From contig JBBSXN010000005.1 of the NCBI GenBank assembly GCA_038045765.1, forward strand, positions 30,905 through 94,904: a stretch of 64,000 nucleotides of DNA, read 5' to 3'. The translations under genes and the position numbers were made by a program. This document shows, one piece after another, positions 18,625 to 54,452 of this stretch; position 1 is the stretch's first letter, and every line of letters starts with the position of its first letter. The notes below the pieces were generated by a model. That model was not told the origin of the DNA. It worked only from the letters and a program-made list of their open reading frames with translations, and ran no database searches. The stretch is from Nanobdellota archaeon (GTDB lineage: Archaea > Nanobdellota > Nanobdellia > Pacearchaeales > GW2011-AR1).

Positions 18625-19488
18625 ATGGAACTTCAAAAAATGCATTGGATTGGAATTATCTTTGGAGGAATATTAGTCTTAGTTAGCTTAATATTCTTTT
18701 ACACTGAGGTAGAAAAAAATCTATTTATTTTCTTAATTGGGCTAGGTATCGCAACTATGGCTTTTCCTTTCATAGTTGGAGTTGTAAATGAAGGTAAGAA
18801 AGAACAAGAATTAAATGAGATGTTTCTTGAATTCTCAAGAAACCTTGCTGAAAGTGTAAATATTGGTACTCCGGTAAGCAAGAGCATTATTAATATGGCT
18901 AGAAAGAAATATGGTGCACTTACTCCTCATATTGAAAAACTTGGAAATCAAATAGGCCTTGGAATCCCGGTGCATAGAGCTTTTGAAAATTTTGCTCGAG
19001 ACATTAATAATCCAGTTATAAGTAGAGCAGTTACTTTAATAAGTGAAGCAGAAAGAGCTGGAGGCGAAATAGATTATATTCTTGACTCGGTGGCTGAATC
19101 TATTTCTCAAATTGAAAAACTTAAAATTGAAAGAAAAACGGCTGTTTCAAGTTTAGTAGTCCAAGGATATATTATTTACTTTATATTTATTGGAATTATG
19201 TTGATGATGGAGTTCCAGATATTGCCTCTTGCCGCACAGGTAAGCTCATTGAAAGGACTTTCAACTAACTCACTTACTCTAGCAGAAGGAGCTTTACAAA
19301 CTCCAGTTTTCTCTAAAGATAATCTCGCTAGTTTGTTCTTATCTTTGCTTCTTGCTCAAGGATTTTTCTGTGGTTTTGCAATTGGAAAATTAACGGAAGG
19401 AAATTTGAAAGCTGGAATAAAACACTCATTTATAATGATGATATCTGCGTTCCTTATAACTAGCGGAATACATCTATTCAAAGTCTAA
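18625..19488 (+). CDS. second T2SS-F-domain platform protein (TadB-like)
   Basis: FLEFSRNLAESVNIGTPVSKSI...LGIPVHRAFENFARDINNPVISRAVTLISEAERAGGEI. N- and C-terminal TM helices. ATG follows 1 nt after the upstream TAA. Confidence 0.7.
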   Translation: MELQKMHWIGIIFGGILVLVSLIFFYTEVEKNLFIFLIGLGIATMAFPFIVGVVNEGKKEQELNEMFLEFSRNLAESVNIGTPVSKSIINMARKKYGALTPHIEKLGNQIGLGIPVHRAFENFARDINNPVISRAVTLISEAERAGGEIDYILDSVAESISQIEKLKIERKTAVSSLVVQGYIIYFIFIGIMLMMEFQILPLAAQVSSLKGLSTNSLTLAEGALQTPVFSKDNLASLFLSLLLAQGFFCGFAIGKLTEGNLKAGIKHSFIMMISAFLITSGIHLFKV

Positions 19489-19498
19489 TCTTTTAATG

Positions 19499-19550
19499 TC
19501 AAGATTCTTAAGTGTCGAATCTTGAGCACAGAAAATCAGTAGATTTTCTG
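19499..19550. terminator. double hairpin between convergent genes
   Basis: TCAAGATTC-N9-GAATCTTGA (19499-19525) and CAGAAAATC-AGTA-GATTTTCTG (19529-19550). Both are perfect 9-bp stems, read directly. Confidence 0.45.
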
Positions 19551-19551
19551 G

Positions 19552-20364
19552 TCAGGAAACTAACGGATAGTTTCCTGCATCCAAAAAACTATTCGTTTTT
19601 TTGATAAGGTAAAAAATCTCATTTTTTGTTTTAAATGACTCGTAGCTATAATTTAAACGTTTTAACAGTTGCTCTATCCATCCTCTTTGAGGATGGTTCA
19701 TGGGTTTTCCTGAGAGAGTTTTTGTTGAAAAACTCACTAATAGATATTTGCATTGGATGAATTTTATAATCTTCTCTGCAAGTTTATGCCCTCTCTCTTC
19801 AAGAACATCGAAAACCTTCAGTATTAGACATAAATCTACTTTAGGAAGGGGAGAATTGAGATTTCTTAAGTCGTATAAAAAAGCTTCTCCAGAAATATTA
19901 TTCATATTAAAGTATTCTTTAACTAAATCTAAATCATTTTGATTTATATCCGTTGCATAGTATTTTATTCCTTTGCTAGCAATGGCAATTGGATTAAGAC
20001 CGCAACCTAAATCTAAGATAGATTTAACATGTAATGAGGCAATTTTATCTTTTAAAAAAGAATAATCTGAAATCCTTTCTTCTGCTGATGAATGTGTCTT
20101 TAGCAAGTCTTCTATCTTTCCAGATTCTAATAACTCTTGCTGAAGACTAGAGGTATTTTGGAATCTTCCAGACATCTTTCTTAAATTGCCTCTAACTTCC
20201 TTTATAATTAGCTTTTTTTCTTTTTCAGATAAATCTTTCTTACTTACTTTATTCTTATCAAAATATGAAATTATTGCTTCTTGTACAATTGAATTTGCTA
20301 AACCGGACAATTCTTTCTTTTCTTTTACTGAAAAGCATAAAGATTTTATTAATTCTTCTTCCAT
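19552..20364 (-). CDS. FmrO/ArmA/RmtB-family 16S rRNA (guanine-N7) methyltransferase homolog
   Basis: LLKTHSSAEER, SILDLGCGLNPIAI, YYATDIN, LLVSFSTKTLSGKPMNHPQRGW and EIFYLIKK parallel remembered ArmA/RmtB motifs (LLKIHSSTNER; LDIACGLNPLAL; VSFPTRSLGGRGKGM; ELIYLIKK). 270 aa, the family-typical length. Confidence 0.6.
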   Translation of the reverse strand: MEEELIKSLCFSVKEKKELSGLANSIVQEAIISYFDKNKVSKKDLSEKEKKLIIKEVRGNLRKMSGRFQNTSSLQQELLESGKIEDLLKTHSSAEERISDYSFLKDKIASLHVKSILDLGCGLNPIAIASKGIKYYATDINQNDLDLVKEYFNMNNISGEAFLYDLRNLNSPLPKVDLCLILKVFDVLEERGHKLAEKIIKFIQCKYLLVSFSTKTLSGKPMNHPQRGWIEQLLKRLNYSYESFKTKNEIFYLIKKTNSFLDAGNYPLVS

Positions 20365-20431
20365 ATTGCAGAGTTAGATTATTATTTATGGGGAACAGAA
20401 GCTATATAAATTTAGTTGGGGGTTATATTAA

Positions 20432-21148
20432 ATGGAAAAGAGAGGAATCAGTAATGTAGAGATGGTATTAGCTTTTTTGATATTTATAGGGGCAGTTTTA
20501 TTCGCAATTTATTTCTTTGCTGGACAATTTAGCCAACGTGAAAAGTCAGAGAGTATCGATTATATCTATAATGTTATAATAGACAATGCTAAAGATGAAT
20601 TTAAGACTTATTCTATAAAAGTTAACCGAACTTCTTTACCTAGCCAAGTAGAAATAATTGCTATTGATCTAGATGTTGATTTTAATCTTGATGAAAACGT
20701 TGCTGCTTATGATTTTTCTGAAAATAAATTATCTTTAAAACTGATTAGTAATATTATTTATCTAAATATTAGTGATAGTGAAGATATAATTAATTTAAGA
20801 ATAAGTAAAAGTATATTGAATAATTACACACAGTTTTCTGATTCTCCTGTGCATAATCCTTCTAATTATGAAATTGCGAGTAGTAATAGAAATACTTTAA
20901 CTTCGGAAAAAATGTTGCGTGATTTAATTAGGGAATATAATTTAGATTATAATAGATTAAAGAGTAGACTGGGTGTGAGTAGGGGATTTGAGTTTGGCTT
21001 CGGAGTAAAGTTTTCAGAAACAGAATTTATTGAAACTAATAAAGAAATACCAAAACAAGTACAATTGTTTACTAAAAATGAAAGAAAAGAAATATTAAAA
21101 GAAGATGGAAGAATTGTTTTCTCAGACTTTAAGGTGAGTGTATGGTAA
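20432..21148 (+). CDS. pilin-like protein (class III signal peptide, Glu +5)
   Basis: MEKRG|ISNVEMVLAFLIFIGAVLFAIYFF. 238 aa. TATA-like GCTATATAAATT ends about 22 nt before the ATG. Confidence 0.5.
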   Translation: MEKRGISNVEMVLAFLIFIGAVLFAIYFFAGQFSQREKSESIDYIYNVIIDNAKDEFKTYSIKVNRTSLPSQVEIIAIDLDVDFNLDENVAAYDFSENKLSLKLISNIIYLNISDSEDIINLRISKSILNNYTQFSDSPVHNPSNYEIASSNRNTLTSEKMLRDLIREYNLDYNRLKSRLGVSRGFEFGFGVKFSETEFIETNKEIPKQVQLFTKNERKEILKEDGRIVFSDFKVSVW

Positions 21149-54190: not shown

Positions 54191-54452
54191 ATGTAGATGG
54201 GGAGATTGCCTGGTTTTCATATGGCAGTTGATCTCGAGTCATTCTCGGCTTTGCAACCCTGTAAGCACCATACTTCCTGCTTAGGGCTGCTCCGATCAAG
54301 GCCTGACCCATTTCACAAGAGTACGATCGAACAGGACAAAGCGTCAACGTTTGATACGAGACTGCAATATGTCTGCCTCACGCACTCCTTTAAGCTCCGC
54401 CATAAAGCCCGTTTGCGGATTGCATGGGGCTAGCATGCAAGCTCTTCTACAT
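54191..54452 (-). ncRNA. signal recognition particle RNA (7S/SRP RNA), ~262 nt
   Basis: GC-rich island in AT-rich DNA. The minus strand reads ...GGGUCAGGCCUUGAUCGGAGCAGCCCUAAGCAGG..., matching the helix-8 core (UCAGGNCC-loop-GGNAGCAGCC-AAGGCAG). Terminal helix AUGUAGA/UCUACAU. Alu-type hairpin loops AGCCC and GGGCU are complementary. TATA lies ~20 nt upstream and T5 follows the 3' end. Confidence 0.75.

Follow-up and report, generated by a model that had tools for sequence, protein, structure and literature searches.

A member of the archaeal branch of the Arm/Rmt/FmrO family of rRNA methyltransferases, encoded antisense in a pilus locus, is probably a native ribosome modifier of Nanoarchaeota rather than an acquired resistance factor

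What does a gene of the type known for aminoglycoside resistance do in an ultra-small archaeon, where it lies antisense within a pilus locus? The Arm/Rmt family has been studied almost solely as a clinical resistance mechanism, and a member in such a genome might reflect the import of a resistance trait, protection against the antibiotics of neighbouring organisms, a task in the surface organelle or a function in the ribosome itself. The gene is found in a 64,000-nt stretch of contig JBBSXN010000005.1 of the Nanobdellota archaeon assembly GCA_038045765.1, which we call the window. The genome is that of an 880-kb DPANN archaeon (86% complete), and a partial archaeal 16S gene is present on the same contig, so that the archaeal host assumed in an earlier interpretation of the DNA letters (the sequence-only reading) is borne out.

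The minus-strand ORF at 19552-20364 is complete, with 270 codons and a stop, and it contains all four motifs quoted in the sequence-only reading, which took its product for a homologue of the ArmA/RmtB/FmrO-type enzymes. This assignment holds. The HMM search against Pfam FmrO (PF07091) that had been proposed as a check gave 58.7 bits for a gathering score of 27 (E 7.5e-16), and the match was also found in a whole-genome search. A PDB sequence search with the protein returned RmtB (E 2.7e-16) and ArmA (E 8.9e-13), with RmtF, RmtC and Sgm also matched, and in the PDB alignments the motif strings given there for ArmA and RmtB agree with the real proteins. We looked for a resemblance to the Kam/NpmA enzymes, which form m1A1408, and found neither NpmA nor KamB among the Pfam, NCBIfam, PDB sequence or Foldseek matches. 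With the NCBIfam Rmt equivalog NF000466 the protein scored 107.7 bits, below the cutoff of 250 and hence outside that resistance-gene definition, and the subfamily models for RmtB to RmtH gave 30-61 bits against cutoffs of 500-550. The equivalog score thus marks a distant family member that is none of the named resistance enzymes.

The predicted fold agrees with this placement. The AlphaFold2 (AF2) model, built with 66 homologues, has a pLDDT of 91.8 and a pTM of 0.88, and it shows a helical N-terminal domain of the 30S-docking type followed by a class I Rossmann domain. The 16 best Foldseek matches in the PDB are all m7G1405 methyltransferases aligned across both domains, with TM scores of 0.74-0.83 for RmtB, RmtF and Sgm and of 0.65-0.83 when RmtC is included; ArmA is also matched over its full length. 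Generic Rossmann enzymes come after them (E 2e-8), with TM scores of at most 0.49 when normalised to the query length. The N-terminal helical domain covers approximately residues 1-110 (20035-20364, minus strand), from the model helix 2-13 through the helix 98-110. It is the counterpart of the 30S-docking N1/N2 subdomains and holds motif X (H91-S93-E96-R97) as well as F68. The C-terminal Rossmann methyltransferase domain, delimited by alignments to approximately residues 111-256 (19597-20034, minus strand), carries D118/G122/N124-P125, D139, D165, K183, S211-F212, K215, K220 and M222. That the protein is a true Arm/Rmt/FmrO-family methyltransferase in an archaeon is therefore secure, given the Pfam score, the PDB sequence matches and the full-length fold matches.

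Its closest counterpart in both sequence and fold is RmtB (PDB 3FRH, 3B89), with ~30% identity over residues 82-256, TM scores of 0.74 normalised to the query and 0.82 to the target, and the same two-domain architecture. Both proteins have the HxS(T/A)xER, LDxxCGxNP, D, D/N, K and SF(P/S)T motifs and end C-terminally in E(L/I)xYLIKK. RmtB is a bacterial, plasmid-borne and proven resistance factor, whereas the window protein, known from its sequence, falls in a distinct archaeal clade. The latter also has Arg in place of the conserved His and Glu in place of Lys20, and its loop bearing K220 and M222 is two residues shorter before the conserved Met.

The window protein is one more member of a known archaeal branch, on record since 2010, when NEQ545 of Nanoarchaeum equitans was termed the 'first archaeal ortholog' of the Arm family (Husain et al. 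2010, PMC2896518). NEQ545 comes from an archaeon of the same GTDB class; its catalytic motifs are conserved, and its N-terminal domain has diverged and is reported to lack one helix (PMC2896518), whereas the N-terminal domain of the window protein is full-length. A Nanoarchaeum-type homologue of 217 residues, G258, is far more diverged than the window protein, with a very long branch that precludes its placement in our tree. A literature search on FmrO and 16S-RMTases in archaea yielded no follow-up to the 2010 report.

For a closer comparison, residues were mapped onto the published structure of RmtC on the 30S subunit (PDB 8GHU; PMC10288597), which supplies the mechanism assumed below. The SAM contacts are kept, namely S93 and D139 (RmtC S107 and D160) and R97, G122, D139 and D165 (Sgm R108, G135, D156 and D182), and the SAM-binding residues are invariant or nearly so in the archaeal alignments. 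Motif X is likewise conserved (H91/E96/R97). K183 corresponds to K204 of RmtC, which contacts the guanine N7, and is invariant in all 25 archaeal rows. The other residues that position the guanine, F68 and K215 (RmtC Y60 and K236), have been retained, as have K220 and M222 of the helix-44 loop (RmtC R241 and M245) and the basic docking residues R58, K51 and K55 (RmtC R50, K43 and K47). Other docking residues of N1 are altered relative to RmtC, with K20 replaced by E18, Y21 by L19 and H54 by R62. In RmtC, His54 is essential and near-universal, and K20 and Y21 are among the important N1 docking residues (PMC10288597). The replacements are consistent across the archaeal lineage: the His54 site is Arg in 19 and the Lys20 site Glu in 20 of the 25 rows, and Leu or Phe occupies the Tyr21 position. 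The equivalents of RmtC Asn248, Thr207 and Arg211 also differ in the window protein, from which the RmtC-specific N2 insertion (K67, R68, K71) is absent.

We consider it likely that the gene codes for a native, vertically inherited rRNA guanine-N7 methyltransferase of an archaeal (Nanoarchaeota/DPANN) branch of the Arm/Rmt/FmrO family, and that it serves a constitutive ribosome modification and not acquired resistance. Substrate, site and role are what we infer by comparison with RmtC. The product probably acts on the decoding region of the small subunit. Judging from sequence and model, it most likely methylates N7 of a guanine at the top of helix 44 in the small-subunit rRNA, a modification that would be constitutive yet dispensable. 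The N-terminal helical domain would dock close to helices 44 and 45, on the side of the 30S particle that forms the subunit interface, and the C-terminal Rossmann domain would bind SAM through S93, R97, D118/G122 and D139. The K220/M222 loop may then pry open the top of helix 44, with the flipped guanine stacking on F68 and its N7 being methylated next to K183.

Which guanine this would be is less certain than the family name implies, with G1405 as the default candidate. The 16S gene of the window genome ends at the contig edge, at model position 705, and the assembly contains no other 3' fragment of it. Among 20 related 16S genes, one of them from the same genus, G1405, U1406, C1407, A1408, A1492/A1493, U1495, C1496 and the GGAA loop of h45 are present, and no helix-44 difference separates gene-bearing from gene-free genomes. 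Within the window's own family, all 15 genomes examined have an intact G1405:C1496 pair. Variants at 1405 were collected with a 13-nt pattern, which mostly gives chance matches; five of the 34 matches whose flanks were read, with 12 more outside this count, lie in a true 16S context. These five are Nanoarchaeota genomes from four families that have A1405 with a compensating U1496, namely G002 (L068, from the window's order), G340 (L073), G243 (L074), G255 (L075) and G527 (L088), and all five carry an FmrO-family gene. Four of their proteins were aligned, and each has kept the complete active site.

The persistence of intact enzymes where 1405 is an adenine points to a tentative alternative, in which the archaeal clade uses the same fold and chemistry to methylate another guanine of the decoding region, G1401 being the best motivated, or another RNA. 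The replacement of His54, Lys20 and Tyr21 is in keeping with it, and so are MALDI data on helix 44 of N. equitans. There the RNase T1 fragment 1406-1410 was seen, corresponding to a cut after G1405, whereas m7G is not cut by RNase T1 and stays internal (fragment UAC[m7G]CG); fragments holding nt 1402 were missing, and the authors suggest, in view of a RiboMeth-seq ambiguity, that G1401 is base-modified. Nevertheless, the N7-contacting Lys, the stacking aromatic residue and the Met and Lys of the helix-44 loop are all conserved, and the very long branch of G258 means that what was seen in N. equitans may not apply to the window's clade, in whose family G1405:C1496 is unbroken. In addition, Tyr replaces His54 in three of the four proteins from A1405 genomes but in none of 34 other archaeal proteins. 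This small sample, drawn from two independent families, is a hint that recognition by the enzyme still involves the 1405:1496 region. Because A1405 lineages have retained the enzyme and its docking residues are altered, there is a real, if minority, chance that another nucleotide is the target.

The 16S genes harbour other unusual features in and near the decoding centre. Positions 1400 and 1396 are normally universally conserved decoding-centre nucleotides; C1400U (CACUGCCCG) was observed in the 16S genes of L049, L050, L053, L054, L055 and L059-L062, and A1396U in those of L048, L049, L050, L052, L056 and L066. Position 1499 is a C (AAGUCGUCAC) in all 16S genes examined from the class, and the 1409:1491 pair of the window's family is A:U instead of C:G.

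A native enzyme might also be maintained by selection because it shields the ribosome from 4,6-disubstituted deoxystreptamine aminoglycosides released by neighbours, the self-protection proposed in the sequence-only reading. Every characterised member of the family confers resistance to such compounds, and since A1408 and G1405 are present in the related 16S genes, the ribosome has most of the bacterial-type drug pocket. We nevertheless regard this explanation as unlikely. The gene resides among housekeeping and translation genes in other orders, as described below, and it has been retained in the A1405 lineages, where m7G1405 is impossible. Furthermore, an A:U pair at 1409:1491, as in these 16S genes, should already weaken aminoglycoside binding. 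A preprint also makes the case that aminoglycoside uptake is poor in fermentative ultra-small cells. The producers' own enzymes Sgm, KgmB and FmrO (PDB 3LCU, 3LCV) are chromosomal and intrinsic and have the same fold (TM 0.76), with a lower sequence similarity to the window protein (E 2e-6 for the Sgm type). They guard against the antibiotic made by their host, whereas an unsystematic look at the window revealed no aminoglycoside biosynthesis genes.

The immediate surroundings of the gene are those of a pilus locus. Its convergent neighbour, at 18625-19488 on the plus strand, is the second T2SSF-type pilus platform gene, and its divergent neighbour, at 20432-21148 on the plus strand, codes for a 238-residue pilin-like protein and is the first gene of a second pilin/adhesin set. 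Pfam T2SSF and T2SSE assignments at the locus were taken from orthologues with 99-100% identity, that of the convergent neighbour from a 99% identical one. The sequence-only reading had placed the methyltransferase gene antisense inside this locus, and the arrangement proves to be conserved within the family: in all eight own-family contigs (48-92% protein identity), the gene is found antisense between the second T2SSF gene and a pilin-like gene of 230-242 codons.

The divergent spacer between the methyltransferase and pilin-like genes (20365-20431) is 50-67 nt long in the genomes compared, which include L016, L018 and L020-L023. Its only TATA box, TATATAAA at 20403-20410 (TTTATATA on the minus strand), is kept in the seven relatives aligned (48-92% protein identity), with one base different in L023. 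The distance from the TATA box to the pilin ATG is 21 nt; to the methyltransferase ATG it is 37-38 nt in the subgroup that includes the window, against 21 nt in the four distant relatives. These features suggest that the spacer acts as a shared bidirectional promoter, which may co-express the methyltransferase gene with the pilin set. Such a compact spacer with one TATA box in its middle would give leaderless transcripts in both directions.

On the convergent side, the sequence-only reading had described a double-hairpin terminator. The hairpins are real (19499-19525 and 19529-19550; RNA fold z scores of -3.15 on the plus strand and -4.67 on the minus strand). The idea of an ancestral convergent terminator was rejected, given that they belong to a hairpin-rich repeat of 108 nt (19489-19596) that is missing in L016 (92% identity) and L018 (67%). 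This stretch is a recent insertion of a small repeat. Its stems pair 19499-19507 with 19517-19525, 19529-19537 with 19542-19550 and 19553-19562 with 19568-19577; the first two come from the RNA folds, and the third, of 10 bp (19553-19577), was read directly from the sequence. Two further copies, ~92% identical over ~70 nt, are found in the genome at C3:24405-24474 and C2:110319-110391. The core of ~70 nt, TCTTGAGCACAGAAAATCAGTAGATTTTCTGGTCAGGAAA...TTTCCTGCATCCAAAAAAC, follows an inverted pair, ATGTCAAGA / TCTTGA, and occurs in at least three genomic copies; the outer arms of the repeat carry an ATCTTGA(C) core. Rfam gave no credible family match for the repeat region. Elsewhere in the window, positions 54246-54343 (minus strand) match the bacterial-type small SRP RNA in Rfam (40.5 bits for a threshold of 40), which may represent a partial archaeal SRP RNA or an unusually reduced one.

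The insertion has altered the end of the methyltransferase. Where it is absent, the two convergent genes of the relatives overlap tail to tail by a few bases, and the proteins stop ~0-10 residues, usually 1-5, past the conserved ...EIFYLIKK motif. In the window, the last 14 codons have been rewritten, so that …IKK-LDFE became …IKK-TNSFLDAGNYPLVS. This non-ancestral, repeat-encoded C-terminal tail (19555-19596, minus strand) is of low confidence in the AF2 model (mean pLDDT of 49 for residues 261-270, below 50 for 267-270) and is predicted to be disordered.

We then compared these surroundings with those in more distant genomes. At 20 loci of other families and orders (27-39% protein identity), no pilus ATPase or platform gene was found within ~9 kb. 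The commonest neighbour there is pelota, which is adjacent and co-directional at six of the 20 loci (L024, L027, L030, L033, L034 and L040); these pelota proteins have the eRF1_1 and eRF1_3 domains and belong to ribosome rescue. A TrmB-type regulator neighbours the gene at five of the 20 loci, and its other neighbours include an RNase D-like gene, TFS and a gene named, from its sequence only, as PheRS alpha-like. As pilus genes are close by only in the window's own family, the pilus location is a family-level inherited arrangement, and the neighbours in other families place the gene in a wider context of translation and information processing. A functional tie to the pilus system across the class was rejected on the basis of these 20 loci.

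A role of the gene in the pilus system, in which its product might methylate pilins or some other protein, or the gene might control the platform genes by antisense, is accordingly very improbable. The strict conservation of its position within the family, the TATA box common to the gene and its pilin neighbour and the convergent 3' overlap in relatives would fit such a role. That overlap, however, has been removed by the insertion in the window, pilus genes do not accompany the gene in other families, and in the model the protein superposes on rRNA methyltransferases throughout, basic RNA-docking helices included.

The distribution of the gene, its composition and its phylogeny all bear on its origin. 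The nearest proteins are from Nanoarchaeota and Pacearchaeota metagenome assemblies. The gene is present in a single copy in the window genome, with a GC content of 0.295 and a codon adaptation index (CAI) of 0.664, compared with 0.325±0.027 and 0.705±0.039 for the long ORFs of that genome; its GC, GC3 and codon adaptation all fall within ~1 standard deviation of theirs. The codon-usage comparison, which the sequence-only reading had proposed as a check for foreign origin, thus indicates a native composition with no sign of import. With a lineage-specific profile, the gene was detected in 66 of 76 high-quality genomes of the order (87%), and with a class-wide profile in 237 of 400 genomes of the phylum (59%), leaving ~41% without it. 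It is absent from all 14 control genomes. In a maximum-likelihood tree, one branch with an SH-aLRT support of 99 parts 35 archaeal from 28 bacterial sequences, the latter comprising RmtA, B, C, F, H, ArmA and 22 environmental relatives, a bacterial sample that lacks the actinomycete producer enzymes. The window's family forms a clade with a support of 100, and sequences from the same genome family pair as sisters. The gene has thus been inherited vertically, with repeated losses and no recent transfer: its native composition, conserved synteny, single archaeal clade and 87% prevalence in the order do not support horizontal acquisition and contradict the suggestion of an acquired gene in the sequence-only reading. 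A recently transferred bacterial resistance gene inserted into a pilus operon, which the renown of the family on plasmids and in antibiotic producers and the antisense orientation of the gene might bring to mind, is the least credible of the explanations considered, because the gene is native in base composition and codon usage and near-core in the order, relatives with as little as 48% protein identity have it at the same position, a well-supported branch has all the archaeal sequences to one side, and the identity of its product to RmtB and ArmA is only ~30%.

We also compared the distribution of the gene with that of KsgA/Dim1, and rejected the idea that the FmrO-type enzyme replaces KsgA/Dim1: among 201 genomes of the order it is present in 16 of the 21 that have KsgA and in 119 of the 180 that do not, with no either/or pattern (Fisher p 0.46). 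The window genome has no bona fide KsgA/Dim1, the sole match being a partial one of 24 bits to the SAM motif at C1:28627-28845. Across the order, full-length KsgA/Dim1 was found in only ~21 of the 201 genomes, while the h45 GGAA loop with A1518/A1519 is still conserved. The loss of KsgA/Dim1 has been published for N. equitans (PMC5389701), and judging from the genomes it appears to be widespread in this order.

These analyses show a family known from resistance as a long-inherited, single-copy, near-core gene in an order of ultra-small archaea, most of which do without the otherwise near-universal KsgA/Dim1. Such a gene points to a natural role of the fold other than resistance, in the function or assembly of the ribosome. 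For genome annotation, DPANN genes of this kind should not be counted as acquired aminoglycoside-resistance determinants. The persistence of the enzyme where position 1405 is an A raises the question of which nucleotide the archaeal branch methylates. It is possible, at rather less than even chances, that the whole Nanoarchaeota branch is a constitutive decoding-centre modifier directed at a guanine other than G1405, with G1401 as the best candidate because the published N. equitans data suggest a base modification there. If so, this would explain both the intact enzyme in the A1405:U1496 lineages and the docking residues unlike those of the bacterial enzymes (Arg for His54, and Tyr in the A1405 lineages), and it would represent a new site specificity and the first housekeeping role in the family.
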